This document shows, one piece after another, positions 10,225-53,238 of a stretch of DNA of 64,000 nucleotides; positions within the stretch are counted from its first letter, which is position 1, and every line of letters begins with the position of its first letter. A program made the translations under genes and the position numbers. Origin of the DNA: a virus; IMG/VR virus record IMGVR_UViG_3300032287_003559, positions 64,001 through 128,000 of that record; one strand, written 5' to 3'. A model generated the notes under the pieces. That model had not been told where the DNA came from. It saw only the letters and a list, made by a program, of their open reading frames with translations, and made no database searches.

Positions 10225-10254
10225 CTTCTAAATACTTAAAAAAGTATTGTATAA

Positions 10255-11262
10255 ATGGCGGTTTTATCGGGAAAAACTACAGCAGGTGAAAGTGCCTTTG
10301 ATAAGTATATAAAAAATAATCCAAAATGGAAAGATTTGGATTTATTAGTTGAAGAAAAAATGGAGGCAGTTTTTTATAAAGAAAATAAAAAAGATATCCA
10401 TAGTATGCTTTCATCTGGAACAAAACTTGAACTAGTTTCAAATCAACAAATTTCAATAGGAAATTTAAAATTAGCTCATGTAAAAGTTGGTACTAAAAGA
10501 GGTTATGTTCCTATCAATAAAATTAGAAAACCAACAAAAACAAATGTTTTGGCTGCAGAAGAGGCAGCCATGAGAGATTTGAATAATCTTATCCAAAAAC
10601 TTGTTACCCAAATTGGACCTATTAAAATATGCACGCCTGTTGGAACTTATGAAGGTATAACGGGAGTCCGGAATATTACCGAAAAAGTTCTTGGTAGAGA
10701 AGCAAAAGCAGACTTTGCTTTAGTCGCAAATGGTAAAGATAAAATATTCATTTCCCATAAAAAAAGTGGAGGTCCTGCAGCATATCAACAATATGGTGGA
10801 GTTTCTCCAAAGTCTGGATCACAATCTAAACCAACATTAATATATGATAATAAAGAGGTGCAAGATTTTTTGATGAAAGTTACCTCTTATATTGAGAATG
10901 ATAAGTTAGTTCATCCAGTGTATTCTTCTGTACTAAGTGATCAATTGATTAATCAATCTGTTTTTGGTCCTTCGTATGGAGGAAATTTTGGAATAGATAA
11001 TGTTCAATGTATCGGACAAGGGGATCCAATTCTTAAACCAAAAAGAAATGAAGAATCTTGTTTTACTTTAGATTTTTCAGATCATGTTTCTTGGAATGGG
11101 GATACTTCTTATTTTAAAACAGGTCAATATAAAGCTGTTTTTGCTGCTACTTTTAGAGCCGGAAGAGGATTTGATGTTGGTGGGATAAGATATAATGGAG
11201 CTAGAGTCGCTATTTATCCAATAGCCTTGGTTCAGAATAGAAGTGGCGCTAAAGAGATTTAA
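10255..11262 (+). CDS. Putative PD-(D/E)XK-type endonuclease
   Basis: AEE...KADFALV...IFISHKK pattern. Confidence 0.45.
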   Translation: MAVLSGKTTAGESAFDKYIKNNPKWKDLDLLVEEKMEAVFYKENKKDIHSMLSSGTKLELVSNQQISIGNLKLAHVKVGTKRGYVPINKIRKPTKTNVLAAEEAAMRDLNNLIQKLVTQIGPIKICTPVGTYEGITGVRNITEKVLGREAKADFALVANGKDKIFISHKKSGGPAAYQQYGGVSPKSGSQSKPTLIYDNKEVQDFLMKVTSYIENDKLVHPVYSSVLSDQLINQSVFGPSYGGNFGIDNVQCIGQGDPILKPKRNEESCFTLDFSDHVSWNGDTSYFKTGQYKAVFAATFRAGRGFDVGGIRYNGARVAIYPIALVQNRSGAKEI

Positions 11263-11288
11263 TAAATATAAGTATATCAACACAAAAT

Positions 11289-12563: not shown

Positions 12564-12564
12564 G

Positions 12565-14070
12565 ATGTCAATCAATCCACTGAACGATATATCAAAAATT
12601 TATTTGGAAAGTGTTTCTAAGTCTTCTTATCTTGAAACTGATATGAAGAAGAGACAATCTGAAAACGAGAAAGCTATTGCTGATATGAAAAAAACAGCCG
12701 CATACAAAAGTATGGCGGCTGCTGCGGCAAAGAAATTTGATGAAGGATTGGATCCTGTAGGAAAGGAAGATTCTGATGTTGATAATGATGGTAAGAAAAA
12801 TACAAAATCAGACAAATATCTTTTAAATCGCAGAAAGCAAATCAATAAAGCAATTGAAACGCAAGAAGAAGCAAAAAGATGGTGGGATGATGATGGTGAT
12901 GGAAAGGGGTGGGAAAAGGGAGAAGTTTCTGGTAAGTTTAAGAAAAATAAAAAAGTGACTAAAGAAGGATTTTCAAATTGGAGACAAGATCTTTCTGAAG
13001 TAATGACTGATACTGAATTTGGTAAAAAAATAAAAGAGAAAAAAATTAAAAATAAAATTAAAATTAACCCTTCAATATCAGAAACAGTTGAAAATCTTGG
13101 TGGTACTCTGATAGAAATGGTTGAAATTGATGAAGTAGAATTTGTTGTTGAAAGTGTTTATGATGAACTTTTGGAGGAGGGATATGATGAGGATGATATT
13201 GAAGAAGCAATTGAGTATGCTTTAACCGAAGCGACAGTTACTTATGGACATGATACTGATAAACCTCATCAAAAGAAAAGTGGTGCAGGTCATCTAGTTA
13301 AAGCAGTCGGTAGACTTGCAAGACAAAAACTTGCAAGTAAAGTTAGTGGTGCTAAAAAAGCAGCTGCTGGTGCAGTTGCAAAAGGAGCAAGAAAGGTTGC
13401 TAAAGGTGCATTAGGTGTTGCTCGCAAAATGGAAGGTGGCGATAAAAAACCAAGCACAGCACATACTAAGACAAGAACTGCATCAACCTATCGTGGTGCT
13501 GGTGTGGGGCAAAAAGAAAAAGTAAGTAGTGGTTCTTATACTGGACCTGCTAAAAAGAAAGCAGAACCAGTTGCTGATCCTTGGGAAGGAAGTGCAGTAA
13601 CTCCAACAAAGGCAAAGGCAAAAACTAAAAAAGCAGCAGCACCAAAAGCAAAGGCACCTGCAGCAGCTGCTCCAAAGAGAAAGAGAAAGTCTAAGTTAGA
13701 TTCTCTGCTTGCTGATATTAGAAGTGAGCAAGTTCATATTGATGAAAAAACTTTGACTGCCGCAGAAACAAAGGAAAAGGAAAGAATTGTAAAGTCAATG
13801 AAGGATAAAGCGGCAGATTTTGAAAAAAGATATCCTGGTCGCGGAAAAGAAGTTATGTATGCTACTGCCACTAAAATGGCAAAGAAAATGGCAGAACAGG
13901 CAATGGAACTGCAACCAAAAACGCAACAAACCGGCAGTCCACAGCAGGATGCAAAAACAAGATCTGCTGCACAAAAAGCCAAGCAAACTGCAATAAGTAT
14001 TAAACAAAAAGAACTTCAAGCACTTAGATCAACCCCAGCAGGAACTCCTGTTTCTGGATTTGGTGGTTGA
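12565..14070 (+). CDS. Late K/A-rich protein, probably virion-associated
   Basis: GLDPVGKEDSDVDNDG, WWDDDGDG; low complexity. Confidence 0.55.
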   Translation: MSINPLNDISKIYLESVSKSSYLETDMKKRQSENEKAIADMKKTAAYKSMAAAAAKKFDEGLDPVGKEDSDVDNDGKKNTKSDKYLLNRRKQINKAIETQEEAKRWWDDDGDGKGWEKGEVSGKFKKNKKVTKEGFSNWRQDLSEVMTDTEFGKKIKEKKIKNKIKINPSISETVENLGGTLIEMVEIDEVEFVVESVYDELLEEGYDEDDIEEAIEYALTEATVTYGHDTDKPHQKKSGAGHLVKAVGRLARQKLASKVSGAKKAAAGAVAKGARKVAKGALGVARKMEGGDKKPSTAHTKTRTASTYRGAGVGQKEKVSSGSYTGPAKKKAEPVADPWEGSAVTPTKAKAKTKKAAAPKAKAPAAAAPKRKRKSKLDSLLADIRSEQVHIDEKTLTAAETKEKERIVKSMKDKAADFEKRYPGRGKEVMYATATKMAKKMAEQAMELQPKTQQTGSPQQDAKTRSAAQKAKQTAISIKQKELQALRSTPAGTPVSGFGG

Positions 14071-14112
14071 ATTAATAAATAGGTTAGGATAAATCTTAAC
14101 AAGGAGGTTATT

Positions 14113-14301
14113 ATGTTAACTAGCACGCTATTATTAACGATCGTTAAAGGAATTAGTGTAGCAAACGTTCAACTTATTCTTGGTATTCTTCTTGCTATTT
14201 CGGAAGTTCTTGGTGCTGATCCAAGAGTAAAATCAAATGGAATCGTTTCATTTATTCTACTTCAAGCACAAAATTTCTTAAAGGCAAAAAAAGGAGAGTG
14301 A
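14113..14301 (+). CDS. Small membrane protein
   Basis: SD AAGGAGG; hydrophobic segments. Confidence 0.65.
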   Translation: MLTSTLLLTIVKGISVANVQLILGILLAISEVLGADPRVKSNGIVSFILLQAQNFLKAKKGE

Positions 14302-14327
14302 ATTAAGACAAAATAAAATAATTATAA

Positions 14328-14363
14328 ACAGAGGCTGGTATCAGTCTCTGTTTTTTATAAATA
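14328..14363 (+). terminator. Terminator plus late promoter
   Basis: CAGAGGCTG..CAGTCTCTG-T6; TATAAATA at 14356. Confidence 0.75.
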
Positions 14364-14397
14364 TTTCTACGAATTAAAATTAGTAAAGGTAAAAAGA

Positions 14398-15174
14398 ATG
14401 GCACTCTGGGGCATCTCAACAACCACTGAAACAGCAGCAAATAATTATGCGCTTCCAAAGCACATGTCTGAAAATGATAGAAATAATACTCCTTGGAATT
14501 GCTTTGCAGACGTTCGTGGGTGGATTTATAGAAGATATCATTCTAGCGAACAATCTGGTCTTTCAACCGATTACTATGATGAAGTAATTGTTCCAGTTGT
14601 TGGACTGAACACTGGAAATGATTCTCCAGGAAATGGTGCAAATAATACTGGTATTGGAAGTGCAACTCCTGTCGCAGTATTCTTCGAAGATCCAAATAGA
14701 TCTTCAAGAATTTCCGTAGGTGGAGGAGCAACTTCTGGATTCTCTACAACTGGAACTGCATATGTTCATGTTGTATGGAATGAAAATGTTTATTGTAGTG
14801 CTGGAGCAACTGTTTTACTTGGACAGTTTAACGCTGCTGGTGTTTCAATAGGTACAACTGTTGCGACTGCTGCTTCAGTAGCACCAAACTGTGCAGTTTC
14901 TGCATATGCTAATGATGCTGGTTATCTTCTTTATAATAATTTTAATGGACAAATTTCAAACCGAGTAGCATTTGCATTTACTGCATCTGGTGCTGGAATT
15001 GGTACAGTGTTTAGAATTGTTCTTACTCCTGGAGTTGTAGGTACAATTACAGATTTCTCTGGTGGTGGAACGGCAAATAAATCCTTCCCCGCTGATATTT
15101 TGAGAAATGTTGGTGGCGCAGGGACAACTGGATCTGTAGGCATTGGAACAACTACTCTAACAATTACTGCTTGA
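14398..15174 (+). CDS. Putative virion structural protein
   Basis: MALWG N-terminus, G/T/A-rich with GIGT motifs, late promoter. Confidence 0.65.
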   Translation: MALWGISTTTETAANNYALPKHMSENDRNNTPWNCFADVRGWIYRRYHSSEQSGLSTDYYDEVIVPVVGLNTGNDSPGNGANNTGIGSATPVAVFFEDPNRSSRISVGGGATSGFSTTGTAYVHVVWNENVYCSAGATVLLGQFNAAGVSIGTTVATAASVAPNCAVSAYANDAGYLLYNNFNGQISNRVAFAFTASGAGIGTVFRIVLTPGVVGTITDFSGGGTANKSFPADILRNVGGAGTTGSVGIGTTTLTITA

Positions 15175-15180
15175 TATTAA

Positions 15181-15573
15181 ATGATTTTTAATGAATTGAA
15201 TGAAGATAATTTTTTATTATTTGCTATTAAAAATTATGAAAATCCTCAGGCTGTAACCAGAGAAGATTTTGAAAAAGATCTTAATCATTTTAAATATATC
15301 AAAAGACTCTTAAAAAGATATAAGAATACTGGTGAGCTAAAAACTCACCTTCTTCTTAATCATTTTATTGTTCTTTATAATATCTTTGGTGAAGCAACAA
15401 CACCAATGCTATTTTTTAAAATTGAAAAAGATCTTTGGTCTTCAATGAAAAGTTTTATTATTTTTCTAGGTAGACTACCAGAATATCCAAAATCTACAAT
15501 TCATGATATTAAAGTTGATTTTAATTGTTTAGAAGAACTTTACAAAATCTACAATGGATCGCAAGAAAATTGA
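15181..15573 (+). CDS. Conserved T4-like hypothetical protein
   Basis: FAIKNYENP...FKYIKRLL...LLLNH. Confidence 0.8.
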   Translation: MIFNELNEDNFLLFAIKNYENPQAVTREDFEKDLNHFKYIKRLLKRYKNTGELKTHLLLNHFIVLYNIFGEATTPMLFFKIEKDLWSSMKSFIIFLGRLPEYPKSTIHDIKVDFNCLEELYKIYNGSQEN

Positions 15574-15757
15574 CTGGATTATTTCACTAATAAGAGAAGA
15601 AATGGTAACTTCTTCGCCAACAAATAATGTTGGTTCTGGAAAAATTGCAGGAACTCCTCAAGCAGATCCTGGAAATCCTCCAGTGTTTGGAAAGAGGAAG
15701 AAAAATATATATCTCGGAATTGGTTCTCGTAAAAAGTGGATGAAACCAAAAAACTAA
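15554..15757 (+). CDS. Hypothetical protein
   Basis: IREE...PTNNVGSGKIAG motif. Confidence 0.65.
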   Translation: MDRKKIDWIISLIREEMVTSSPTNNVGSGKIAGTPQADPGNPPVFGKRKKNIYLGIGSRKKWMKPKN

Positions 15758-15820
15758 ATAATTTTAATACTACTTGGGGTATTTGTTTCGTAGTAAAGAA
15801 ATAATATCTTTAATTAGAAA

Positions 15821-16252
15821 ATGTTCAATCAGAATACTACGGCAGATACCAAAATAGCTGTTTTAGAAGAAAGGCTTTCGTCATACGAACTTATGATGAA
15901 AAAAATAGACGAGGCCATTCAAATAATGGGTAAGACGAGTCAAAATATTAGCAAAATGCTTGCTGTTCATGAAGAAAGAATAGAACAGTGTGGTAAAGCT
16001 GATGATTTACTTACTAAAATGATCTATGAGATGAAAGAAGAAGGTGAAGAGCATTGTAGTAAAGTTTCTAATAGAATTGATAAGATAGAAGCTGATATAA
16101 AAGAAATTGTTAAATTTAGATGGATGGTTGCTGGTAGTGGAATTGTAGTCGCCATTATTATTACAACAGTTACAACCCTTGCTTCTGGATGGTGGGACCC
16201 AATGCAAAATGAAATGCATCACCAACCTAGTCAGCAACAAGTAACCAAATAA
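15821..16252 (+). CDS. Coiled-coil protein with C-terminal TM helix
   Basis: KMLAVHEERI; hydrophobic C-terminus. Confidence 0.7.
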   Translation: MFNQNTTADTKIAVLEERLSSYELMMKKIDEAIQIMGKTSQNISKMLAVHEERIEQCGKADDLLTKMIYEMKEEGEEHCSKVSNRIDKIEADIKEIVKFRWMVAGSGIVVAIIITTVTTLASGWWDPMQNEMHHQPSQQQVTK

Positions 16253-16422
16253 ATAATAGAGTGTTGGCATAAGATGCCAATGAAAACTAAAAACAAAACG
16301 ACTCTCTATTCGCTTCAAAAGATTACAAATTCGGTTGTGAAATGGACTGGATTCATGACTGCTTTGTATCTTGACAAGACGCGATAATCTGGTATAGTAG
16401 ATGAACCTGGTATAACTTCATT

Positions 16423-17391
16423 ATGGATTTCGTTGATGTAAAGTACATCAATTTGCTTTCTTCGCGTTTTCAGAAATTTAAGAAAGTAAAACATAATCTC
16501 TACAATTTTCGCTGTCCAATTTGCGGAGACTCGCAGAAGAATAAAAATAAAGCAAGGGGATATCTTTATCAAGTAAAAAACAATACTAACTTTAAATGCC
16601 ATAATTGTGGACTTAATATATCTTTCAATAATTTTTTAAAGCAACTTGATCCAACAATCTATAAACAATATTCTTTTGAAAAATTTAAGGAAGGTAATAC
16701 TGGTAAAAACTTTACAGTACAGGAACCAGTATTTAAATTCGAAGCACCAAAGTTTAAACCTAAGTTAGAATTGCCTAAAGCATCATCAAATCCTAACGCA
16801 AAATTATATCTTGAAAATAGAAAATTAAATCCGGATAAATTCTATTACGCAGATAAATTTAAATCTTGGACCAATTCTATAAAAGAGGTCTTCGATGATA
16901 TTTCTAAAGATGAACCTAGGATTATTATTCCTTTGTTCTATCAAAATATTCTTATTGGATTTCAGGGCAGAGCACTAGGACCCAGTAAGATTAAATACAT
17001 TACTGTAATGCTTAACGATGACGCACCAAAAATCTACGGTCTTGATGAAATACAAAAAAGTGAAACTGTATACATCACAGAAGGTCCATTTGATTCAACC
17101 TTCATTCCAAACTCAATTGCTCTTTGCGGAGCTGATGGTGATGTTAGTAGGTGGGGTATTAACAATCCTGTGTGGATATATGATAACGAACCACGTAATA
17201 CAGAAATCCTATCAAGAATTTCCCGTATTATCGAAACTGGACAAAAAGTTGTTATCTGGCCTTCAACAATAAAGGAAAAGGACATTAATGAAATGGTATT
17301 GTCTGGACTGGATGTTCAGTCTGTGATAGAATTAAATACTTATTCTGGATTAGAAGCAAAACTTAAATTTACTACCTGGAAGAAAATATGA
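16423..17391 (+). CDS. gp61: DNA primase
   Basis: RCPICGDS, KCHNC, TEGPFDS, YDNEPRN. Confidence 0.96.
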   Translation: MDFVDVKYINLLSSRFQKFKKVKHNLYNFRCPICGDSQKNKNKARGYLYQVKNNTNFKCHNCGLNISFNNFLKQLDPTIYKQYSFEKFKEGNTGKNFTVQEPVFKFEAPKFKPKLELPKASSNPNAKLYLENRKLNPDKFYYADKFKSWTNSIKEVFDDISKDEPRIIIPLFYQNILIGFQGRALGPSKIKYITVMLNDDAPKIYGLDEIQKSETVYITEGPFDSTFIPNSIALCGADGDVSRWGINNPVWIYDNEPRNTEILSRISRIIETGQKVVIWPSTIKEKDINEMVLSGLDVQSVIELNTYSGLEAKLKFTTWKKI

Positions 17392-19685
17392 GCAACGGTA
17401 CAAAGGTTAAAAAGCGTGATGGTCGAATTGAATCTCTTGACCTAGACAAAATGCACTTGATGGTTGAAGAGGCGTGCAAGGGTCTTGCAGGAGTCTCTGC
17501 TAGTCAAGTTGAGATGACTTCTGGTATTCAATTCTATAACGGGATTACGACAGCAGAAATTCAAGAAATTTTGATTCGTTCTGCTAGTGATTTGATTGAT
17601 CTAGATCATCCAAATTATCAGTATGTTGCTGCTCGTCTACTTCTTTTTGCTGTTCGTAAGCAACTTTATGGAAAAATGAAAGAACTTCCTACGCTTGAAC
17701 AGCACATTTATGTGTGTGTTAATAAAGAAGTTTATGATAATGATATCTTCAGCAAATACTCAAAAGAGGAAATTGATAAAGCTGATTCTTATATCGATCA
17801 TGACCGTGACTATCTGTTTACTTATGCAGGTCTACGTCAAGTAGTTGATAAGTATCTTGTGCAAGACAGAAGTGGCGGCGGCGTATATGAAACTCCCCAA
17901 TTCATGTATATGATGATTGCTCTGACTATTTTTGCAGAGTATCCAAAAGAAACTAGAATGTCATATGTAAAGAGGTATTATGACGCAATCTCAAAGCACA
18001 AAATCAACATTCCCACACCTATCATGGCGGGAGTGCGAACTCCACTTCGACAATTCGCTAGCTGTGTTCTTGTTGATGTTGATGACACCCTCGATTCTAT
18101 CTTTAGTAGCGATATGGCTATTGGCAGATATGTTGCACAAAGAGCGGGAATCGGTATCAACGCAGGTAGAATCCGTGGTATCAACAGTAAAATTAGAGGT
18201 GGAGAAGTTCAGCACACAGGTGTTGTCCCATTCCTCAAAAAGTTTGAAGCAACTGTCCGATGCTGCACTCAAAATGGCATACGTGGTGGATCAGCAACTG
18301 TCCACTTCCCAATCTGGCACCAAGAAATAGAAGACATTCTAGTTCTTAAGAATAACAAGGGAACCGAAGATAATCGTGTCCGTAAACTTGATTATTCCAT
18401 TCAAATTAGTAAGTTGTTTTATGAAAGGTTTATTAAAGATGAAGAGATTACTCTCTTCAGTCCCCACGACGTACCTGGACTTTATGATTCTTTCGGAACA
18501 GATCGTTTTGACAGTCTCTATGTTTCGTATGAAGAAGATTCGTCCATTCCGAAAAAAACTATCAAGGCACAGGAACTTATTCTTAACCTCCTTAAAGAGC
18601 GTGCGGAAACAGGTCGTATCTATATTATGAATATTGACCACTGCAATTCTCATTCATCTTTTAAGGACAAAGTTAATATGAGTAATCTCTGCCAAGAAAT
18701 TACTCTTCCGACTGATCCCATTCACCATATTGATGATGATATGGGTGAAATTGCTCTCTGCATTTTATCTGCAATTAATGTTGGTAAAGTAAAGTCTGAT
18801 GAAGAACTTGAAGAACTTTGCGACCTTTCTGTTCGTGGTCTGGATGAGTTGATCGATTATCAGAAATACCCCGTAAAAGCAGCTGAGATCGCCACTAAAG
18901 CACGTCGTTCTCTTGGTGTAGGGTTTATTGGGTTGGCTCACTATTTGGCGAAACTTGGTTTTAAATACGAATCTCAGGAAGCATGGGATGCAGTTCATGG
19001 ACTTTCAGAGTCTTTCCAGTATTACCTTCTGAAAGCATCTAATCAACTTGCTAAAGAAAAGGGATACTGCGAATATTTTGGACGTACTAAGTATGCTGAT
19101 GGTATTCTTCCTATCGATACTTATAAGCAAGATGTAGACGAAATTTCTTCTATTGAATACCAACATGACTGGGAATCTCTTAGAGCATCTATTCTCGAAT
19201 ATGGACTTCGACATTCAACGTTGTCCGCACAGATGCCATCGGAGAGCAGTTCCGTTGTGTCAAATGCAACAAATGGGATCGAACCACCACGCGGTTTCCT
19301 GTCCATTAAAAAATCCAAGAAAGGACCACTTAAGCAAATTGTTCCACAGTACCACACACTTAAGAACAATTATACGCTTCTTTGGGATATGTCTGGGAAC
19401 ACTGGGTATATTAATATTGTTGCAGTTATGCAAAAGTTCTTTGATCAAGCAATTTCTGGAAACTGGTCATATAACCCAGAGCATTATGAAAATAATGAAG
19501 TTCCTGTTTCAGTAATGGCAAATGATTTTCTGACTACATACAAGTACGGGTGGAAGACTTCCTATTATCAAAATACCTATGATATTAAAACCGATGAGGT
19601 GGTGGAAGAAAAACCCAATCTTCAAGATTTAATTAATGAGTTAAGTACAGTAGAGGAGGGAGAGTGTGAATCCTGTGCAGTTTAA
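17388..19685 (+). CDS. nrdA: Class Ia ribonucleotide reductase alpha
   Basis: ATP-cone VKKRDG, ASCVL, SNLCQEI, TSYY, CESC; no intein. Confidence 0.98.
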   Translation: MSNGTKVKKRDGRIESLDLDKMHLMVEEACKGLAGVSASQVEMTSGIQFYNGITTAEIQEILIRSASDLIDLDHPNYQYVAARLLLFAVRKQLYGKMKELPTLEQHIYVCVNKEVYDNDIFSKYSKEEIDKADSYIDHDRDYLFTYAGLRQVVDKYLVQDRSGGGVYETPQFMYMMIALTIFAEYPKETRMSYVKRYYDAISKHKINIPTPIMAGVRTPLRQFASCVLVDVDDTLDSIFSSDMAIGRYVAQRAGIGINAGRIRGINSKIRGGEVQHTGVVPFLKKFEATVRCCTQNGIRGGSATVHFPIWHQEIEDILVLKNNKGTEDNRVRKLDYSIQISKLFYERFIKDEEITLFSPHDVPGLYDSFGTDRFDSLYVSYEEDSSIPKKTIKAQELILNLLKERAETGRIYIMNIDHCNSHSSFKDKVNMSNLCQEITLPTDPIHHIDDDMGEIALCILSAINVGKVKSDEELEELCDLSVRGLDELIDYQKYPVKAAEIATKARRSLGVGFIGLAHYLAKLGFKYESQEAWDAVHGLSESFQYYLLKASNQLAKEKGYCEYFGRTKYADGILPIDTYKQDVDEISSIEYQHDWESLRASILEYGLRHSTLSAQMPSESSSVVSNATNGIEPPRGFLSIKKSKKGPLKQIVPQYHTLKNNYTLLWDMSGNTGYINIVAVMQKFFDQAISGNWSYNPEHYENNEVPVSVMANDFLTTYKYGWKTSYYQNTYDIKTDEVVEEKPNLQDLINELSTVEEGECESCAV

Positions 19686-20853
19686 AATTTCTTCAACAGA
19701 AGAATCTAGAAATATTAAAGGAATGACCGTTTTTAATACTGAAAAAGTTGATACCAAAAAGCAACCAATGTTTTTTGGTAAACCTCTTGGAGTTCAGAGA
19801 TATGATTCATACAAATATCCAATCTTTGACAAACTGACTACTCAACAACTTGGATACTTCTGGAGACCCGAAGAGGTTTCTCTCCAGAAGGATCGTGGTG
19901 ATTATCAAACACTGCGTCCTGAGCAGAAGCACATTTATACTTCAAATCTGAAGTATCAGATCATGCTTGATTCTGTTCAGGGTCGTGGTCCTGGTATGGC
20001 TTTTATTCCATACTGCTCACTTCCCGAACTTGAGGCATGTATGGAGGTATGGGGATTTATGGAGATGATCCATAGTCGTTCATATACCTACATCATTAAG
20101 AATATCTATTCAGACCCTTCTGAGGTGTTTGATACTATTATTGGCGATGAACGTATTCTGGAACGTGCTAAGAGCGTTACAGAGTCTTATGATGACTTCA
20201 TTCAATCGGCACAATTTTATGGAACTTCCGATCAATGGAAGCATCAACTTGAAGGAGTCACATACGCAAAGGAATCACTCAATGACGTTAAAAGAAAACT
20301 CTATAGAGCAGTCGCAAACGTTAATATTCTTGAAGGTATTCGCTTCTACGTTAGTTTTGCTTGCAGTTTCGCCTTTGGTGAACTTAAGCTTATGGAAGGA
20401 TCAGCTAAGATCATCTCTCTTATCGCAAGAGACGAAAACCAACACCTAGCACTTACTCAGAACATTCTGAATAAGTGGAGGGAAGGTGATGATCCTGAAA
20501 TGAAACAGATTGCTAAGGAAGAAGAAGAGTGGGTTTATAAGATGTTCGATCGTGCTGTAAACGAAGAAAAGAAATGGGCAGATTATCTGTTCAAAGATGG
20601 AAGCATGATTGGATTGAATGATAAACTCCTTCAGCAATATGTTGAGTGGATTGCAAATCGTAGACTGAAAGCAATCGGTCTCAAACCACAATATGACATT
20701 TCAGCAAACAATAATCCACTTCCTTGGACACAGCACTGGATTTCTTCCAAAGGTCTTCAGGTTGCTCCCCAGGAAACAGAGGTAGAATCTTATGTTGTAG
20801 GGGGAATTAAGCAAGATGTTACCAAAAATACTTTCGCAGGATTCCAATTATGA
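19666..20853 (+). CDS. nrdB: Ribonucleotide reductase beta
   Basis: FWRPEEV, EMIHSRSY, EGIRFYVSF, RDENQH. Confidence 0.97.
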   Translation: MNPVQFKISSTEESRNIKGMTVFNTEKVDTKKQPMFFGKPLGVQRYDSYKYPIFDKLTTQQLGYFWRPEEVSLQKDRGDYQTLRPEQKHIYTSNLKYQIMLDSVQGRGPGMAFIPYCSLPELEACMEVWGFMEMIHSRSYTYIIKNIYSDPSEVFDTIIGDERILERAKSVTESYDDFIQSAQFYGTSDQWKHQLEGVTYAKESLNDVKRKLYRAVANVNILEGIRFYVSFACSFAFGELKLMEGSAKIISLIARDENQHLALTQNILNKWREGDDPEMKQIAKEEEEWVYKMFDRAVNEEKKWADYLFKDGSMIGLNDKLLQQYVEWIANRRLKAIGLKPQYDISANNNPLPWTQHWISSKGLQVAPQETEVESYVVGGIKQDVTKNTFAGFQL

Positions 20854-21140
20854 TGAATGGTGCGAACAGGAAATCCTGAATGCATACAAAGAAGCAGCAG
20901 AATGTGATGAGTTTATGTTTGGAGATTATAACTATTGTGAAGAATGGTTAGGTAAAACTAGTAATGATGTTGCATAGATAGGGGAGGTTATCTCCTCTTT
21001 TTTTATGGTACACATTACAGACATTTACGAACTAAAAGCAAGACTTGATGGTCTTAAGCACCAACTTGAGAATGAAAATTTGCCTTGGCATGAGAAACAA
21101 CTAGCTCATAAATATCTGAACAAGGCAATGGATTATGTGA

Positions 21141-21578
21141 ATGAGTTGCAGTTATATTAATCCCTGGTATTATGGTAACAAGTCTTTTGAATCTGAAGAT
21201 ATAGAAGATTATTATGGGTTTGTTTATTTGATCGAGAATAAACTAAATGGTAGAAAATATATCGGAAGAAAATATTTTTGGCAGTTTAGAACTCCAAAAG
21301 GTAAAAAAAGAAAAGTAAAATCTGAATCTAATTGGAAGGATTACTATGGGTCTTGTCCGGAACTTAAAGAAGACATTGACAAATTTGGCAGAGAAAATTT
21401 TAGTAGAACTATCTTATCATTACATAAAACAAAGGGCAAAACAAACTTTGAGGAGACCAGACGACTCTTCAACCACAATGTTCTCACAGAATCCCTTGAC
21501 GGTGGAGTCCCAGCGTTCTACAATAGCAACATCCTCAACAGGTACTTCCGAAAAGATTATTATGGAAACAACGACTGA
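21141..21578 (+). CDS. GIY-YIG (Seg-like) endonuclease-domain protein
   Basis: GFVYLIEN...KYIGRK...YYGS. Confidence 0.75.
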   Translation: MSCSYINPWYYGNKSFESEDIEDYYGFVYLIENKLNGRKYIGRKYFWQFRTPKGKKRKVKSESNWKDYYGSCPELKEDIDKFGRENFSRTILSLHKTKGKTNFEETRRLFNHNVLTESLDGGVPAFYNSNILNRYFRKDYYGNND

Positions 21579-21735
21579 AGATATTGTTGCGCATGTGAGG
21601 AACTGGTCTCTTGACCGTGCTGCAGATATGACTATTCATAAAGAGGATGCTCGTGCAATTCTTGCAGAATTTTATGAATGGATTGAGCCTGAAGGTGATG
21701 AACTTGAAATTGTTTCTCTAGAACCGGAAGATTGA
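21562..21735 (+). CDS. Hypothetical protein (57 aa)
   Basis: ATG 21562; overlaps the upstream stop. Confidence 0.55.
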   Translation: METTTEDIVAHVRNWSLDRAADMTIHKEDARAILAEFYEWIEPEGDELEIVSLEPED

Positions 21736-21890
21736 CAAATTCTAAATAAAAACTTATTATGTAAAAATCCCTGTTATGAGCAGGGTTTTTTATTATGAGA
21801 CTTTGATAGTGATTTAGAGCCGTGGGGATTGCCCTCTGAGAGGGGGGAAGTGCGCTTTCCTTATACGGATGTAGAGTTCAATTAAACTTA

Positions 21891-22517
21891 ATGCAAAACT
21901 TCTTTACTGTAGCCCTCTTGCCTCTTCTGGCAACGGTTACAACCACAACGGCAACACTGCCATCATCTGCTATTTCTCCTTCATATTCTATTATTAAGGA
22001 GTTTGAGTCAGAGAAGACAGCAATCCGCGAGGTTGCTCCCGAAAAGCCAAAAGAGAAAAGGCTAATTTGTAAAGGGTGTAATGAACATGAAAATGTTACC
22101 CTGGCTTATTTTCAGGACATTGGAATTAAAGACAGAAACGCCCTTGCTACCATCATGGGTAATATTCGTCAGGAATCAACTTTTGTTCCTAACATTTGTG
22201 AAGGTGGTAGTAGAACCAGTTACTATAGCTGCGGTCGCGGTTATGGTCTGATTCAATGGACATCTGCCGATAGGTATTATGGATTGGGTGATTTTGCTAG
22301 AAAAGTTGGTGGAAATCCATCATCTATTCGAACGCAACTTGGTTATCTAACAACTGAGGTTCAATGGCAACGAATTGTAGATAGAATGAAAGTTCCTGGT
22401 AAATCTATCAATCGTTACATGGACTATGCGTATAGTTGGATTGGTTGGGGGCATCATGGTGCCCGTACATCTTATGCCTATGATTATGCTTCCCGACTGA
22501 TTCCGGTAGAAGTTTGA
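21891..22517 (+). CDS. Phage tail-type lysozyme-like protein with signal-peptide-like N-terminus
   Basis: IMGNIRQES, GYGLIQWT. Confidence 0.75.
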   Translation: MQNFFTVALLPLLATVTTTTATLPSSAISPSYSIIKEFESEKTAIREVAPEKPKEKRLICKGCNEHENVTLAYFQDIGIKDRNALATIMGNIRQESTFVPNICEGGSRTSYYSCGRGYGLIQWTSADRYYGLGDFARKVGGNPSSIRTQLGYLTTEVQWQRIVDRMKVPGKSINRYMDYAYSWIGWGHHGARTSYAYDYASRLIPVEV

Positions 22518-22562
22518 TACAATAGAATAATAAATAGAGGGAGTCGTATGACTCCTTTTTTT

Positions 22563-22982
22563 ATGCTTAATTTCAACTTCGGAAACAAGAGACCTGATAA
22601 GAAGCAAATCGTCCTTGTAAGCGTCGTATTAAGCACGATAGTAGCAACTCTCTCCCAATGCACTGGAGCGCCCTCAGAGCGCCTCTGGGACCTCTTAGAC
22701 GAGGTTCAGAGGAGGTTCTTCCCCCAGACCATAATTAACGATGTTCTCCTTAAAGATCCTGGAGTTGTTAAAAGAAGAGCGAAAAGAGATGTTGATCAAG
22801 CTATATGGGATTATGAACGCTTGACTGGATATTCAAATGAGCCTAGAATACCTTTGCCGAGGTTGATAGAGAAATCTCCAGAAGCTTCTAAGTGTTATAC
22901 TGAAGAGTGTAAAAAACTTGGAGGAGAAATGAGACTTTGCTCTCCATGGCTTGACGATTGCGTTAAAGAACCTGTACAATAG
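22563..22982 (+). CDS. Hypothetical membrane-anchored, Cys-containing protein
   Basis: N-terminal TM; CYTEEC...RLCSPW. Confidence 0.65.
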   Translation: MLNFNFGNKRPDKKQIVLVSVVLSTIVATLSQCTGAPSERLWDLLDEVQRRFFPQTIINDVLLKDPGVVKRRAKRDVDQAIWDYERLTGYSNEPRIPLPRLIEKSPEASKCYTEECKKLGGEMRLCSPWLDDCVKEPVQ

Positions 22983-22989
22983 AAACATC

Positions 22990-23071
22990 GGGTAGGTGTC
23001 CGAGTGGTTAATGGAGGCGGACTGTAAATCCGCTGGCTCTGCCTACGGGGGTTCAAATCCCTCCCTGCCCA
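22990..23071 (+). tRNA. tRNA-Tyr(GUA)
   Basis: GCGGA-CTGTAAA-TCCGC; long variable arm. Confidence 0.95.
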
Positions 23072-23187
23072 CCTTGACGATCTGATTCTTAAGTGGTATG
23101 ATTGTCTTATGAGCGGTGAGGGTCCAAACCTCACATAAGTCTCACCCCTCCTATGCCTCTCAACGATGCACAAACCAGGAGGGCTCT

Positions 23188-23261
23188 GTTTCGGTAGCTC
23201 AGTTGGATAGAGCATCTGCCTTCTAAGCAGTTGGTCACAGGTTCAAGTCCTGTCCGAAACG
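23188..23261 (+). tRNA. tRNA-Arg(UCU)
   Basis: GTTTCGG/CCGAAAC; CTGC-CTTCTAA-GCAG. Confidence 0.93.
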
Positions 23262-23446
23262 CTTGGAGTCTTTGATTCCATATATAAAAGCGATAGAGGG
23301 TAAGTCCCTGTTATATCCTTATGAGGTATATCACACTTACTCCATCAAATCGTAGGAAGTGCAAACCCTCTCGCTGGTCATAGTATTCTGTGTCTAGATG
23401 AAGGGAAAGGTGATTCTGTCCGCACATAGAAATCCCTCCTACCATA

Positions 23447-23529
23447 GCTCTAGTGGTGGAACGGTAGACACAGCGGACTTAGAATCCGCCGCCTTAAAAA
23501 GCGTGGAAGTTCAAATCTTCTCTGGAGCA
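23447..23529 (+). tRNA. tRNA-Leu(UAG)
   Basis: GCGGA-CTTAGAA-TCCGC; long variable arm. Confidence 0.93.
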
Positions 23530-23568
23530 CTTGACAATCAAACTTAAATAGTTTATGATTGTCTTATT

Positions 23569-23640
23569 GCGAAAGTAACTCAACGGTAGAGTCCCTGCCT
23601 TCCAAGCAGGTTGTTGCGAGTTCGAATCTCGTCTTTCGCT
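23569..23640 (+). tRNA. tRNA-Gly(UCC)
   Basis: GCGAAAG/CTTTCGC; CCTGC-CTTCCAA-GCAGG. Confidence 0.93.
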
Positions 23641-23663
23641 CTTGGAGTTTATCTCCACAAATT

Positions 23664-23737
23664 CCGTTGGTAGTCTAGTGGTCAGGACAGGCAGACAATG
23701 CACTTGGAGTTCGGGTTCGATTCCCGACCAGCGGCCA
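23664..23737 (+). ncRNA. tRNA-like RNA with broken anticodon arm
   Basis: Acceptor CCGTTGG/CCAGCGG, D arm and T arm TCGGG-TTCGATT-CCCGA intact; anticodon stem unpaired. Confidence 0.65.
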
Positions 23738-23753
23738 GCAAATTTCTTTTCTT

Positions 23754-23933
23754 ATGGAAGTTGAAGTTAATTCTATTAATATCGCAAGACTTCTAAGTGA
23801 ATTAGAAGGTTGCTACATCTTCACCAAATATATGGGGTTTGAAGATGATATGAACACTCTTGATGAAATGAAGAAAAGATATTATAAACTTTACTTCAAA
23901 CTCTATAAGGAAGAAAAAAGTAATCCCCTGTAG
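23754..23933 (+). CDS. 59-aa hypothetical protein (MEVEVNSINIARLL...)
   Basis: Translated by hand; stop lies inside the 5' end of tRNA-Asn. Confidence 0.55.
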   Translation: MEVEVNSINIARLLSELEGCYIFTKYMGFEDDMNTLDEMKKRYYKLYFKLYKEEKSNPL

Positions 23934-23996
23934 TTCAGTCGGTAGAACGGAGGACTGTTAATCCTTATGTCCCTGGTTCGAGTCCAGGCGGGGGAG
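23924..23996 (+). tRNA. tRNA-Asn(GUU)
   Basis: TCCCCTG/CGGGGGA; GAGGA-CTGTTAA-TCCTT. Confidence 0.94.
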
Positions 23997-24079
23997 TTGG
24001 AAGGACTGGAAATGTCTGGGTCTTCCATTACTAAAACCTAGAGTTTTTCTAGGTCAGGGGGATGGCCATCCCCTGTTTC

Positions 24080-24152
24080 GGGCGATTAGCTCAGCGGTAG
24101 CAGCGTCTGCTTTACACGCAGAATGTCGGGGGTTCGAATCCCTCATCGCCCA
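24080..24152 (+). tRNA. tRNA-Val(UAC)
   Basis: GGGCGAT/ATCGCCC; TCTGC-TTTACAC-GCAGA. Confidence 0.94.
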
Positions 24153-24180
24153 CTTGCATAAATACTTGAAAAAAAGTATA

Positions 24181-24615
24181 ATGGAAAAACTGTATAAATT
24201 ACTCAGTGATGCACAGTCATCACTTTTTGTTTTATTCCATAAAACTTGGGCATTTCATTGGAATGTTGTAGGTTCAGATTTCACACAACTTCACCAACTC
24301 TTTGGTGGTCAGTATGAAACTATGTTTGAAGAGATTGACCGTCTCTCAGAGCATATGAGATATTTGAATGTAAAACCATTGAGTTCTCTCTCAAGAATGC
24401 TTGAGGTAACTCAAATTAAAGAGGCTGCAAGTTCTACAACAGCAAATAATATGCTTTCAGAACTTCTTGAGAATAATGAAAAGTTTTGTGAAATAATGAC
24501 CGAAATTTCTGAAGAAGCAGAAGCGCAAAAGCAATATGCAACTGCCAATCTATCTCAAGATTTAATGGAATCTCACGGCAAATTTATCTGGCAATTAAGA
24601 GCACATTTACAATGA
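24181..24615 (+). CDS. dps: Dps/ferritin-like protein
   Basis: FHWNVVG.DF..LH.LF..QY....DRLSEH ferroxidase motif. Confidence 0.92.
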   Translation: MEKLYKLLSDAQSSLFVLFHKTWAFHWNVVGSDFTQLHQLFGGQYETMFEEIDRLSEHMRYLNVKPLSSLSRMLEVTQIKEAASSTTANNMLSELLENNEKFCEIMTEISEEAEAQKQYATANLSQDLMESHGKFIWQLRAHLQ

Positions 24616-24630
24616 ATAGGATGAAAAGCA

Positions 24631-24882
24631 ATGTTATCAATAAGATGCAAAGATTGTAATAGAGAATTAACAGGACATCATTCAAAAACAGTAAGTTGTG
24701 GTTGTCCTAATATGGCAACAATTCGTGGAGATAAGATTTCAGCACTTGACTTATCTCGCATTGTTATGCTAAACTCCTTAAAAGAAAATCAAAAAACAAA
24801 TGTGTTAACCTCTCAAGATATTGCTTGGCAGGAAGCACGTCGTCAGCGTAAAGTTAGACGACTTGATTTTGAAGTCCGCTGA
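24631..24882 (+). CDS. Zn-ribbon hypothetical protein
   Basis: CKDC...CGC. Confidence 0.65.
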   Translation: MLSIRCKDCNRELTGHHSKTVSCGCPNMATIRGDKISALDLSRIVMLNSLKENQKTNVLTSQDIAWQEARRQRKVRRLDFEVR

Positions 24883-24893
24883 GGACTTATATT

Positions 24894-24978
24894 GGAAAGG
24901 TGGTCGAGTGGTTGAAGGCTCCAGTCTTGAAAACTGGCGATGTGAAAGCATCCGTGGGTTCGAATCCCACCCTTTCCG
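24894..24978 (+). tRNA. tRNA-Ser(UGA)
   Basis: GGAAAGG/CCTTTCC; CCAGT-CTTGAAA-ACTGG; long variable arm. Confidence 0.95.
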
Positions 24979-25082
24979 TTACAGATTTAACAATTTCTTC
25001 AGTAGTGTTACAGAACGAACACAAATTGTTGACGATGAAAATTTTGTGAATAGTATATAGTAGTACTATCACTTAAAAACTT

Positions 25083-25238
25083 ATGGACCAACACACCTAT
25101 AATAACTGGGTCCGTATTAAAGAGACTTTTGAGAAGTCTGGTAATACAGATAACATGTTTTATAAAAGGGCGTGTGAAATCATAAGAACAAAAAGAGATC
25201 CTCTGGCAAGTTTTTTGGAGATGAAAAATGACACCTGA
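25083..25238 (+). CDS. Small hypothetical protein (MDQHTYNNWVRIK...)
   Basis: Translated by hand, 51 aa; followed by two overlapping small hydrophobic ORFs (25228-25386, 25383-25505). Confidence 0.6.
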   Translation: MDQHTYNNWVRIKETFEKSGNTDNMFYKRACEIIRTKRDPLASFLEMKNDT

Positions 25239-25541
25239 AGAAGTTCAATCTATGATTGATGAGTCTGTTGCGAAGGCAATTGACAAACACAATAAAACTG
25301 CTACAATAATCTCAGCAACAATCGGATCGATTTTGCTTTTCTTCTATGCTCATGGTGTTATTGCTATTATAGATAGAGTACGATGAGACATTTTGTGTAT
25401 GTTATCCTGAATAATCAACTAGCATTGTTTATTATTGGATGCCTCTTGACAATCGCACCTGCTATCGGTATAATGGTAGTACATTCATCAAAGGATGAAG
25501 ATTAAATCTTATAAATAGATTTGAACTTTATTTGAAGAATA

Positions 25542-25868
25542 ATGCCAGCAAAAAACCCAAAAGAATACGCTTCGAAGCACTATCAGCAAAATAAATCTTT
25601 ATATGCTGAAAGAAGTAAAGTTGCTAGACTTAGGGTTAAAGAATGGTATAATGAACTTATGAATGATAAGTTCTGTGAAAAATGTGGTGAATCTGATACT
25701 ATTGTATTAGAATGGCATCACATAGATCCATCTAAAAAGGATATGAGCATTGCTGATATGCTTTCGAGAAGAGGAAAACAAACTATCTTAGAAGAGATAG
25801 ATAAGTGTATGTGTCTTTGTGCTAATTGTCACAGAAGATTGCATCATCAAATACGCAACGGGGTGTAG
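25542..25868 (+). CDS. HNH endonuclease
   Basis: CEKCG...LEWHHID...CMCLCANCHRRLH; late promoter TATAAATA at 25510. Confidence 0.88.
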   Translation: MPAKNPKEYASKHYQQNKSLYAERSKVARLRVKEWYNELMNDKFCEKCGESDTIVLEWHHIDPSKKDMSIADMLSRRGKQTILEEIDKCMCLCANCHRRLHHQIRNGV

Positions 25869-25933
25869 CTCAGCTTGGATAGAGCGCCGCTTTTGGGAAG
25901 CGGAAGTCGCAGATTCGAATTCTGTCACCCCGA
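25859..25933 (+). tRNA. tRNA-Pro(UGG)
   Basis: CGGGGTG/CACCCCG; CCGCT-TTTGGGA-AGCGG. Confidence 0.93.
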
Positions 25934-25950
25934 CTCATAAAACTCACTTT

Positions 25951-26181
25951 ATGAAAATGAATCAAGAAATTAACGAACTTACGACATTTACAATTGAAGA
26001 GTTTCAGAATGATTTCGATAACCTTATGAATAGAGTAGAAGGTGGAGAATCGTTCATCATATCAAGTGAGCACGGAAATGCAGTGATTGTACCATACAAC
26101 GAAGTGGTGCAGGTATTTCAAGAATCTGGTGTGAGTGATGAGATCATACGAATACACACCGATCACGAAGAAGGTTCTTGA
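25951..26181 (+). CDS. Hypothetical protein, Phd/YefM-like N-terminal pattern
   Basis: TIEEFQNDFDNLMNRVEGGESFII...AVIVP. Confidence 0.5.
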   Translation: MKMNQEINELTTFTIEEFQNDFDNLMNRVEGGESFIISSEHGNAVIVPYNEVVQVFQESGVSDEIIRIHTDHEEGS

Positions 26182-26220
26182 CAAAGAGTTCCAGGTCCTC
26201 TACACTAGATCTGGTCTTAT

Positions 26221-26292
26221 GGGACTGTCGCCTATGGGTTAAGGCCCACTGCTTATAACGGTGTGAACTGAGTTCAAGTCTCAGCAGTCCTA
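26221..26292 (+). tRNA. tRNA-Ile(UAU)
   Basis: GGGACTG/CAGTCCT; CACTG-CTTATAA-CGGTG. Confidence 0.85.
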
Positions 26293-26296
26293 CTTT

Positions 26297-26369
26297 GCAG
26301 GTTTAGCTCTCTGGCGAAAGCACCGAACTCATAATTCGGCTAAGGTGGGTTCGATCCCCACAACCTGCA
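26297..26369 (+). tRNA. tRNA-Met(CAU), elongator-type (Ile2 not excluded)
   Basis: GCAGGTT/AACCTGC; CCGAA-CTCATAA-TTCGG. Confidence 0.88.
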
Positions 26370-26445
26370 CTGGACACTTACCAAAGCGTCCTACTTGACT
26401 TTCAAACATCACTTCTCTATAATACAAAGGTCAACAATCAAAACA

Positions 26446-51627: not shown

Positions 51628-52323
51628 ATGAGAGTAGATCTTCATAACTTCTTTAAGCATTATGATGAAAATAATCCAAAACATGTTGCAGCAGTAGAGC
51701 AACTTGAAGTGGATCTTGCAAGTAAGAATCCAGATTTGATCGATGATGCCTCAAACTGGGTTCGCATCTATAGAACAGTTCCTGCAGTTCCGGGAATTCT
51801 TCCAGTTCCTTATTATCCACAGACAGATAACTACAGAGACGCACAAAGAACCTGTAACTCATCTTCTTGTGCGATGTGTCTAGAATACTTTAAACCAGGC
51901 ACGTTACAAGGGGCAAAGGGCGATGATGCCTATATTCAAAAGGTATTTGCTATTGGTGATACAACTGATCACTCCGTCCAGACGAAAGTTCTGGAAGGTT
52001 ATGGAGTTAAGTCACACTTCAGTTACAATCTTTCTTTCTCTGATCTTGATCGTGAGCTTGCCGCTGGGAGACCTGTCGTTATCGGGATTCTTCATAGGGG
52101 CACTTTATCTGCACCTACTGGTGGGCACATGGTTGTAGTCATCGGTAAAAAGGGTGAAGACTACGTAGTAAATGATCCGTATGGATCTTTGAATGATGGT
52201 TATACGGGAGCAGTAACCAACGGTAAAGGTGCTGTATATAAGAAATCAGATCTGATGTATCGTTGGTTAGATCATGGTAAGGATAGAACTGGTTGGGGTC
52301 GTATTTTTGATATAAAAAAGTAG
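51628..52323 (+). CDS. C39-like peptidase domain protein
   Basis: VPYYPQTDN...TCNSSSCAM, GGHMVV, VNDPYG. Confidence 0.82.
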   Translation: MRVDLHNFFKHYDENNPKHVAAVEQLEVDLASKNPDLIDDASNWVRIYRTVPAVPGILPVPYYPQTDNYRDAQRTCNSSSCAMCLEYFKPGTLQGAKGDDAYIQKVFAIGDTTDHSVQTKVLEGYGVKSHFSYNLSFSDLDRELAAGRPVVIGILHRGTLSAPTGGHMVVVIGKKGEDYVVNDPYGSLNDGYTGAVTNGKGAVYKKSDLMYRWLDHGKDRTGWGRIFDIKK

Positions 52324-52368
52324 AACCAACACCACCACCAAAAAATGACATCCCTTTGTGTGGTGTTG
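52314..52368 (+). promoter_or_regulatory. Putative -1 programmed ribosomal frameshift signal
   Basis: A AAA AAG TAG, 6-nt spacer, CAACACCAC/GTGGTGTTG stem. Confidence 0.75.
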
Positions 52369-52811
52369 AATTAATTAAATCTTTTGAGGGATGTCGTTTA
52401 AATGCATATCCTGATCCATTAACCGGAGGTCTTCCAATCACAATCGGTTGGGGGAGTACAAAAGATTTTGATCGAACTCCTTTTAAGATGGGTAAAGTGA
52501 TTACTCAAAAGTATGCAGACACTCTACTTGAGTTTGAGTTAAGAAATAGATACCTTCCTTCCCTACAAAAAATACCATATTGGGACGAAATGAATGAAAA
52601 TCAAAGAGGGGCTTTGCTTTGCTTTGCTTACAATCTTGGTGCAGATTTTTATGGTAATTCTAACTTCAGTACTATTACAAGGATCTTAAAGAATAGGGAA
52701 TGGAATAAAGTTCCTGATGCACTATACCTTTACCGTAATCCAGGAACTAAAGTTGAAGCAGGATTAGTAAGAAGAAGAGTTGCTGAAGGAAATCTTTGGT
52801 CTAGACCATAA
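52320..52811 (+). CDS. GH24 lysozyme domain, probably expressed as a frameshift fusion
   Basis: FEGCRLNAYPD...TIGWG, FAYNLG, GLVRRR.AE; no in-frame ATG before the domain. Confidence 0.85.
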   Translation, partial: VEPTPPPKNDIPLCGVELIKSFEGCRLNAYPDPLTGGLPITIGWGSTKDFDRTPFKMGKVITQKYADTLLEFELRNRYLPSLQKIPYWDEMNENQRGALLCFAYNLGADFYGNSNFSTITRILKNREWNKVPDALYLYRNPGTKVEAGLVRRRVAEGNLWSRP

Positions 52812-53142
52812 AAGGAACTGCTACACCTTCATTAATCATTCTTTCATTTACCGTGACTGGATCTCCTACAAAATAAAGAGTTCCAAGTATTCTTCCGTAC
52901 TTATCTTCTTTTGTAGTCTCAATAATCCATTCACCTTCTTTTGCGAGTTCTTTTTTTAACCATTCTTTTGCTGCAAGACCTCTTTCTTTTTCTTCTATGT
53001 CCAAAGTTCTTGTTTCTGCGGCATTAATACCTTTAAGGCGAACTCTTTGAGATAAGGTAATTCCAAATCCCAAATCAATATCAACGTCAACTGTATCACC
53101 ATCAATGATTCTTTTGATTTTCTTTATTTTGTATTGATACAT
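52801..53142 (-). CDS. Thermonuclease (SNase-like)
   Basis: IIDGDTVD, VRLKGINAAE, DKYGRILG. Confidence 0.85.
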   Translation of the reverse strand: MYQYKIKKIKRIIDGDTVDVDIDLGFGITLSQRVRLKGINAAETRTLDIEEKERGLAAKEWLKKELAKEGEWIIETTKEDKYGRILGTLYFVGDPVTVNERMINEGVAVPFMV

Positions 53143-53238
53143 TTTCTTGATTTGCAATGAGTAATATTTTATAAATGACCCAAGCGACTCCTATGAGTCC
53201 AATACCCAATAGTATATTTACACTCCAGACTACCTCTT

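Follow-up and report, generated by a model that had tools for sequence, protein, structure and literature searches.

Known uses of programmed -1 ribosomal frameshifting include replication, transposition, and tail and capsid assembly. In Escherichia coli dnaX, which encodes tau and gamma, the slippery heptamer A_AAA_AAG is accompanied by a stem-loop about 6 nucleotides (nt) downstream and by an upstream Shine-Dalgarno (SD)-like stimulator, and the two products are made in a set ratio. In the IS3 family of insertion sequences (e.g., IS911, IS150), a -1 frameshift from orfA into orfB yields the OrfAB transposase. The tail assembly chaperone frameshift of phages (lambda G/GT type) involves, as a rule, no strong downstream hairpin. 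Here we describe a junction between a gene for a C39-like peptidase and a reading frame for a GH24 lysozyme in a freshwater T4-like cyanophage. The sequence under study is a 64,000-nt stretch, positions 64,001-128,000 of IMG/VR record IMGVR_UViG_3300032287_003559, which we call the window. The peptidase gene ends GAT ATA AAA AAG TAG (52309-52323), a 9-base-pair (bp) stem starts 6 nt past the heptamer contained in these codons, and the lysozyme is encoded in the -1 frame. We consider it very likely that this junction is a programmed -1 ribosomal frameshift of the dnaX/IS type, placed in an unusual gene context.

The mechanism we propose runs as follows. Ribosomes translating the peptidase gene would arrive at A_AAA_AAG with the TAG codon next in line for the A site and the hairpin positioned at the mRNA entry channel. 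Some of these ribosomes would back up by one base, with the P-site and A-site tRNA-Lys re-pairing on AAA AAA, and would read on as ...FDIKK-VEPTPPPKNDIPLCGVELIKSFEG... to make a 394-amino-acid (aa) protein composed of an N-terminal domain, the C39-like peptidase, a linker, and the GH24 muramidase. Ribosomes that do not shift would terminate at TAG, leaving the 231-aa peptidase as their only product. The lysozyme would thus be made solely as a fusion, in an amount relative to the peptidase that is set by the frameshift efficiency. The sequence elements, their conservation, the covarying stem, and the missing start codons of relatives are observed here; the slip, its efficiency, the two products, their fixed ratio, and the substrates of both enzymes we infer. 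An earlier reading of the window from its letters alone (the sequence-only reading) had proposed this arrangement; the heptamer, the stem 6 nt beyond it, and the TGA that closes the -1 frame all lie where it placed them, and the product sizes it predicted agree with the sequence. The positions of these features are collected below.

Features of the peptidase-lysozyme junction, in window positions
Feature	Position	Strand	Details
Peptidase gene, 0 frame	51628..52323	+	231 aa; ATG at 51628, stop TAG; from the list of open reading frames (ORFs) and Pfam
TGA closing the -1 frame	52308..52310	+	lies two codons ahead of the slip site; -1 ORF open from 52311
Slippery heptamer A_AAA_AAG	52314..52320	+	in phase with the peptidase frame
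0-frame stop TAG	52321..52323	+	abuts the heptamer; first half of the 6-nt spacer 52321-52326
Predicted -1-frame continuation	52320..52811	+	163 codons plus TAA (52809-52811); linker VEPTPPPKNDIPLC, then GH24 domain at about 52377-52787
Candidate stimulatory hairpin	52327..52368	+	5' arm CAACACCAC 52327-52335, loop 52336-52359, 3' arm GTGGTGTTG 52360-52368
TTG, sole conceivable independent lysozyme start	52356..52358	+	33 nt past the stop, in the hairpin loop
Logan contigs over the A6 run	X2 record 8, 52110-52700; X3 record 13, 52134-52337; X4 record 19, 52270-52441

We first consider whether the -1 frame has the properties of a gene. It encodes a predicted GH24 lysozyme, matching Phage_lysozyme (PF00959) over the full model (positions 1-125) with 81.4 bits against a cut-off of 22.3, and the peptidase matches Peptidase_C39_2 (PF13529) with 53.6 bits against a cut-off of 24; these are the two enzymes that the sequence-only reading had named. 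The catalytic Glu (in FEG) and Asp (in YPDP) of the lysozyme are invariant in the fusion alignment, and both are present in the window. The lysozyme frame is free of stops in 106 of 106 relatives, whose differences from the window number 3547, 2563, and 7188 at codon positions 1, 2, and 3, respectively. The lack of stops and the excess of third-position differences indicate that this frame has been evolving as a coding sequence. No other match to PF00959 occurs in the whole phage record. The protein family phrog_3617 (405 positions) is collinear with the predicted product, aligning to the peptidase at positions 1-235 and to the -1 part at positions 245-404; given this family and the natural in-frame fusions described below, the predicted product is plausible. 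As the sequence-only reading had stated, the lysozyme frame has no ATG ahead of the catalytic domain and no SD sequence. The one ATG, GTG, or TTG codon that precedes the catalytic Glu of FEG is the TTG at 52356, and no purine-rich SD-like sequence was found upstream of it.

The survey of relatives drew on two protein-based scans of IMG/VR, one DNA-pattern scan, and phage isolates, which together gave 151 distinct junctions. An in-phase heptamer followed by a stop, with the lysozyme in the -1 frame, is present in 110 of these junctions. The remaining arrangements are an ATG overlapping the stop without a heptamer (AAATGA-type, 22 junctions), an in-frame fusion (8), a lysozyme upstream of the peptidase (6), and well-separated genes (5). 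Two scans were made without regard to the heptamer; they contain 88 distinct junctions, 52 of the heptamer type. Among the 110 heptamers, all in phase, 107 are A_AAA_AAG, two are C_CCA_AAG, and one, in S-CAM7, is T_TTT_TTT. In 54 of the 110, including that of phage S-PM2, the lysozyme frame offers no ATG, GTG, or TTG codon ahead of the catalytic Glu. On the peptidase tree, frameshift junctions are dispersed, and well-supported branches force at least 9 state changes, which suggests that the arrangement is old and has repeatedly been exchanged for other solutions.

The heptamer itself bears signs of selection on its nucleotides. Across the 53 unbiased A_AAA_AAG junctions, the codon preceding AAA AAG ends in A without exception (GCA 27, GTA 24, ATA 1, GAA 1), although the residue it encodes varies among Ala, Val, Ile, and Glu. 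Elsewhere in the same genes, GTA accounts for 28% of Val codons and GCA for 44% of Ala codons. Likewise, the Lys pair is written in the order AAA AAG in 53 of 53 junctions, whereas AAA and AAG are used elsewhere at 65:35. The nearby upstream codons for Gly, Arg, Ile, and Asp show no such constraint on their third positions. A variable codon that always ends in A and a fixed AAA AAG order, amid freely varying neighbors, together argue that it is the heptamer that is selected rather than the amino acids it encodes. In 45 of the 53 junctions a stop follows the heptamer immediately. TAG serves as the stop in 40 of the 53, yet it terminates only 4 of the 62 long ORFs of the window. This excess suggests that either the stop or the resulting -1 codons, GTA GAA (Val-Glu), are under selection. 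The sequence-only reading had proposed checking the conservation of heptamer and stop, and the constraint seen in these junctions bears its expectation out.

A second line of evidence comes from the hairpin. In the window, the fold has a free energy of -14 kcal/mol against a mean of -6.8 for shuffled sequences (z -3.2), and none of 200 shuffles was as stable. Its 3' arm falls in the codons for C-G-V-E, at the N terminus of the lysozyme. Stems in relatives are 8-14 bp long, with spacers mostly of 5-7 nt. Their 3' arms occur in three registers about the N-terminal lysozyme codons for (C)GVELIK or GIELIK, with the 5' arm in the linker changing to match; a single consensus structure is therefore not justified, and we searched for stems locus by locus with shuffle controls in place of one covariance model. 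In the class without a start codon, the median ungapped stem score is 10.5, compared with 5.8 for dinucleotide shuffles, and only 61 of 2600 shuffles score as high as observed. In the overlapping-ATG class without a heptamer, the score of 5.5 is at shuffle level, with 1160 of 1900 shuffles reaching the observed value. The contrast between these classes ties the stem specifically to junctions of the frameshift type.

Among stems of 8 bp or longer, 66 distinct ones follow the heptamer, with changes on both arms (e.g., CAAC/GTTG, CGAC/GTCG, and AGAC/GTCT; AGTTC/GAACT and AGCTC/GAGCT). Besides the pair CAACACCAC/GTGGTGTTG of the window, examples include CGACATCACA/TGTGGTGTCG, AGACATCACA/TGTGGTGTCT, AGTTCTATTCT/GGAATAGAACT, GCCAACTAAC/GTTGGTTGGC, GCCAACTAAT/ATTAGTTGGC, and, in S-PM2, AGCTCTACTTC/GGAGTAGAGCT. 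Because the stems were picked as best pairings, this set of pairs is descriptive, and the shuffle and class controls are the valid test. The covariation that the sequence-only reading had asked after is present in stems that score far above shuffles. No Rfam family matched around the slip site.

Phage isolates and individual contigs convey how the junction varies in nature. S-PM2 encodes its lysozyme in the -1 frame after GAT GCA AAA AAG TAA, and its two records do not differ across the junction. In S-CAM7, GTT TTT TTT CCA CAG TAG is followed after 5 nt by the stem GTAGAACC/GGTTCTAC, and the lysozyme has no start. The junctions with alternative heptamers (L265, L269, and S-CAM7) each combine a stop, a 5-nt spacer, and a stem of 8-13 bp. 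At two of them (L265 2131-2137, L269 3193-3199), C_CCA_AAG is accompanied by a GC-rich hairpin of 11-13 bp with a loop of 4-5 nt, which lies wholly within an Ala/Pro-rich linker of about 40 aa; elsewhere the 3' arm sits in lysozyme codons. S-SRM01 has the heptamer together with an ATG that overlaps the stop.

In-frame fusions occur in ACG-2014f (405 aa), in S-N03 (422 aa, annotated "endolysin"), and in contig L240, and at the fusion point they read ...GWGRIFDVKKSDSS... (L240) and ...FQAKVTAKKSEEGKLPSAGVELIK... (ACG-2014f). An AlphaFold2 model of the L240 fusion, built from a 7-sequence alignment, was poor (predicted local distance difference test [pLDDT] score, 50) and was not used. Contig L238 (at about 3170-3200) has seven A's in place of six, GTA AAA AAA GTA GAA, giving ...DVKKVEN..., which equals the predicted transframe sequence with one A added; the additional base may be a natural insertion or an error of assembly. 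L244, the sister contig of L238, shows the frameshift arrangement.

Other relatives arrange the two enzymes differently. The order is reversed in S-CREM1, with the lysozyme first, and in DSL-LC02 and DSL-LC03, peptidase and lysozyme are two separate genes. In the latter two phages (L004 2531-3202 and L005 2274-2942, respectively), the lysozyme also bears the approximately 55-aa N-terminal domain of the peptidase, in a copy that is 58% identical to that of the peptidase protein (E 2e-24). The N-terminal helical domain seems to be useful to both enzymes. The N-terminal extension of lysozymes of the L040 class had been taken by eye for another copy of this domain, an idea dropped when BLASTP found no similarity; the duplication in DSL-LC02 is real.

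Several observations weigh against a frameshift at this junction. A GTG or TTG occurs somewhere in the -1 ORF in 47 of the 110 heptamer junctions, and nine, including that of S-SRM01, have a lysozyme ATG yet keep the heptamer. The heptamer is also retained in two in-frame fusions, so it can survive where it is not required, possibly through the Lys-Lys protein sequence. In the 53 unbiased junctions, no constrained element that could serve as an upstream SD-like stimulator was found; a TGGGG about 15 nt upstream of the heptamer is set by invariant Trp-Gly codons, and the synonymous sites adjacent to it vary. How prone A_AAA_AAG is to shifting in cyanobacteria depends on the set of tRNA-Lys and its modification. 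Finally, some independent initiation at TTG 52356 is possible in this phage, and with that codon present, the argument that the lysozyme has no other start is for this phage one that rests on its relatives.

These points bear most directly on an explanation by two separate genes, in which the lysozyme initiates at TTG 52356 or a near-cognate codon, or by termination-reinitiation, and the heptamer does no more than encode a conserved Lys-Lys. The TTG is in frame and 33 nt past the stop, translation appears to be coupled in relatives of the AAATGA type and in S-SRM01, and the nine junctions that keep a heptamer beside an ATG would fit. We nevertheless judge this explanation improbable. Several features of the junctions are left unaccounted for: the third-position A of a codon that otherwise varies, the replacement of A_AAA_AAG by C_CCA_AAG or T_TTT_TTT, and a covarying stem that is missing exactly where an ATG exists. 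The TTG lies inside the hairpin with no purine-rich SD-like sequence before it. The sequence-only reading had itself named initiation at this TTG, and homologues that are always fused or self-starting, as findings that would speak against it; the 54 startless heptamer junctions have no equivalent codon, so a start of this kind cannot hold across the family, and the homologues are not uniformly fused or self-starting.

A shift at the RNA level would also join the two frames. RNA polymerase stuttering on the A6 run (T8 in S-CAM7) could add one A and so generate in-frame fusion transcripts; the sites in most members are indeed homopolymer runs, and the seven A's of L238 yield exactly the fusion frame. 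However, six A's are short for productive transcriptional slippage, and the variants with C_CCA_AAG offer the polymerase no long homopolymer. Polymerase slippage would, moreover, not select the X_XXY_YYZ phase, the adjacent stop, or a hairpin at 5-7 nt, all of which are features of ribosomal frameshifting, and we regard it as very improbable. We give even less credence to an artifact or decay, that is, a one-base assembly error in a true fusion gene or a lysozyme that is a dead remnant. In-frame fusions do exist among relatives, one contig does carry the A7 run, and homopolymer runs are prone to sequencing error. Yet Logan contigs from three other studies bridge the A6 run with no letter inserted or missing, which argues that the run is not an assembly error and answers the sequence-only reading's concern about an A7, none being seen there. 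The same arrangement is shared by more than 100 distinct contigs and by both S-PM2 records, the lysozyme frame is intact and coding-like in every one of the 106 relatives, and a remnant would be the only PF00959 domain in the phage record.

With a programmed frameshift as the preferred explanation, we considered what the two products might do. The peptidase has a helical N-terminal domain of about 55 aa followed, at about aa 57-227, by the core of a C39-like cysteine peptidase with a papain fold; a TTG at 51619 lies upstream of its ATG. Residues Q65, C76, H167, and D183, which correspond to a Cys-His-Asp triad and its Gln, are invariant across 70 distant representatives (36-63% identity). The AlphaFold2 model of the peptidase (pLDDT 94) shows a papain-like fold after a small helical domain, and its best Foldseek match is 3ERV, a C39-like peptidase (E 4.7e-6), with further structural matches to PCAT double-glycine peptidase domains, Alr0975, and the pseudomurein endoisopeptidase PeiR. 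Searched as a profile against the PDB, the peptidase alignment gave no match at E <= 1. In other proteins, homologous cores are joined to GH24, to GH108 plus PG_binding_3, and to Amidase_2, and on the basis of these fusions we infer that the peptidase is the peptide-cutting module of a lysin, with peptidoglycan as its substrate.

Both products are most likely lysis enzymes (endolysin) that act on host peptidoglycan, in which the peptidase would cleave the peptide part and the lysozyme the glycan. For P-SS2 ORF098, a distant homologue, no peptides were found in the virion proteome (PMC2784084), which weakly favors a role in lysis over a virion or structural role. In two further proteins, P0051 and P0035, a DUF4231/SLATT-like two-transmembrane domain is joined to a C39-like peptidase, in P0051 together with a lysozyme as well; such proteins may be membrane-anchored lysins.

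A more far-reaching idea, which we put forward as unlikely, is that the frameshift sets and possibly tunes lysis, through a multisubunit lysin held together by the shared N-terminal domain and a slip rate that depends on the host. If this were true, free peptidase and fusion would assemble through their common N-terminal domain into a lysin of fixed composition. The slip frequency would follow the translation state of the host, for example the supply or modification of tRNA-Lys under phosphate or light limitation, and the amount of muramidase, hence the timing or success of lysis, would be coupled to host physiology. The idea is of interest in light of a report that S-PM2 lyses no more than a minority of phosphate-starved cells (PMC2984593).

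The genomic setting is that of a cyanophage. The parent record comprises 175,135 bases, with an estimated completeness of 82%, and its closest isolates are Kyanoviridae that have Synechococcus as hosts. Gene neighbors are those usual for T4-like cyanophages, among them genes for a PstS-like binding protein, a high-light-inducible protein, and a peroxiredoxin, as well as tRNA genes. The window holds 12 phage tRNA genes (10152-26370), 11 of which are clustered at 22990-26370. There is no tRNA-Lys among these 12, which suggests that the slippery Lys codons are decoded by host tRNA. On the opposite strand, an ORF for a staphylococcal-nuclease-like protein (window 52801-53157, minus strand; PF00565, 47.5 bits) is convergent with the lysozyme gene, with which it shares 11 nt at the 3' end of the latter.

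Little is known about the lysis genes of T4-like cyanophages, and such phages kill a large share of aquatic picocyanobacteria. Public annotations of S-PM2 and S-CAM7 miss the predicted frameshift product. The GenBank entry for S-PM2 (L002 2454-2672; L282 1660-1878) gives a 72-aa "putative lysin" that begins with an internal Met and is missing the catalytic Glu, and the annotated lysin of S-CAM7 (L205 2145-2417) is likewise truncated, at 90 aa, with an internal Met as its start and no catalytic Glu. The family phrog_10457 (95 positions, "endolysin") looks as if it was built from such truncated calls. In both phages, the actual product would comprise both enzymes and measure about 390-400 aa, and many IMG/VR contigs would be affected in the same way.

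We found no description of a frameshift in a cyanophage lysin or in any endolysin in the full-text literature searched; subscription journals are largely outside that coverage, so an earlier description is possible. General knowledge and the literature found agree with the sequence-only reading in placing most known phage frameshifts in genes for tail chaperones and capsid proteins. A lysin whose muramidase depends on recoding would add a class of genes to the uses of -1 frameshifting. The frameshift, overlapping-ATG, in-frame fusion, reversed-order, and duplicated N-domain forms also make up a natural comparison series, showing the different means by which phages set the ratio of two enzymes and how they change from one to another.

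Compared with the systems described at the outset, the junction is closest in its signals to dnaX and the insertion sequences. It shares with dnaX the A_AAA_AAG heptamer, a stem-loop about 6 nt on its 3' side, and two products predicted from one message. In dnaX, however, the shift soon leads to termination and a shorter product, whereas here it would add a whole catalytic domain; dnaX has an SD-like stimulator to which no comparable constrained element was found here; and the 0-frame stop abuts the heptamer in most of the unbiased junctions. IS911 and IS150 likewise have A_AAA_AAG at the end of the upstream ORF, a startless -1 ORF downstream, and a 3' structure, and in them, as predicted here, a fusion is made beside the upstream product. 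They differ in encoding a transposase rather than cell wall hydrolases, and IS911 has an upstream SD sequence and a more complex 3' structure. The lambda G/GT type resembles the shift proposed here as a conserved phage -1 frameshift that adds a C-terminal domain and fixes a ratio, but it serves a virion assembly chaperone, whereas the candidate described here would serve a pair of enzymes. Finally, the in-frame lysins of cyanophages (ACG-2014f, S-N03, S-CREM1, and P-SS2 ORF098) have the same domains at 55-75% identity, and that of ACG-2014f has the same domain order and a short linker; unlike the junction in the window, they involve no recoding and yield the fusion only, with no separate peptidase.

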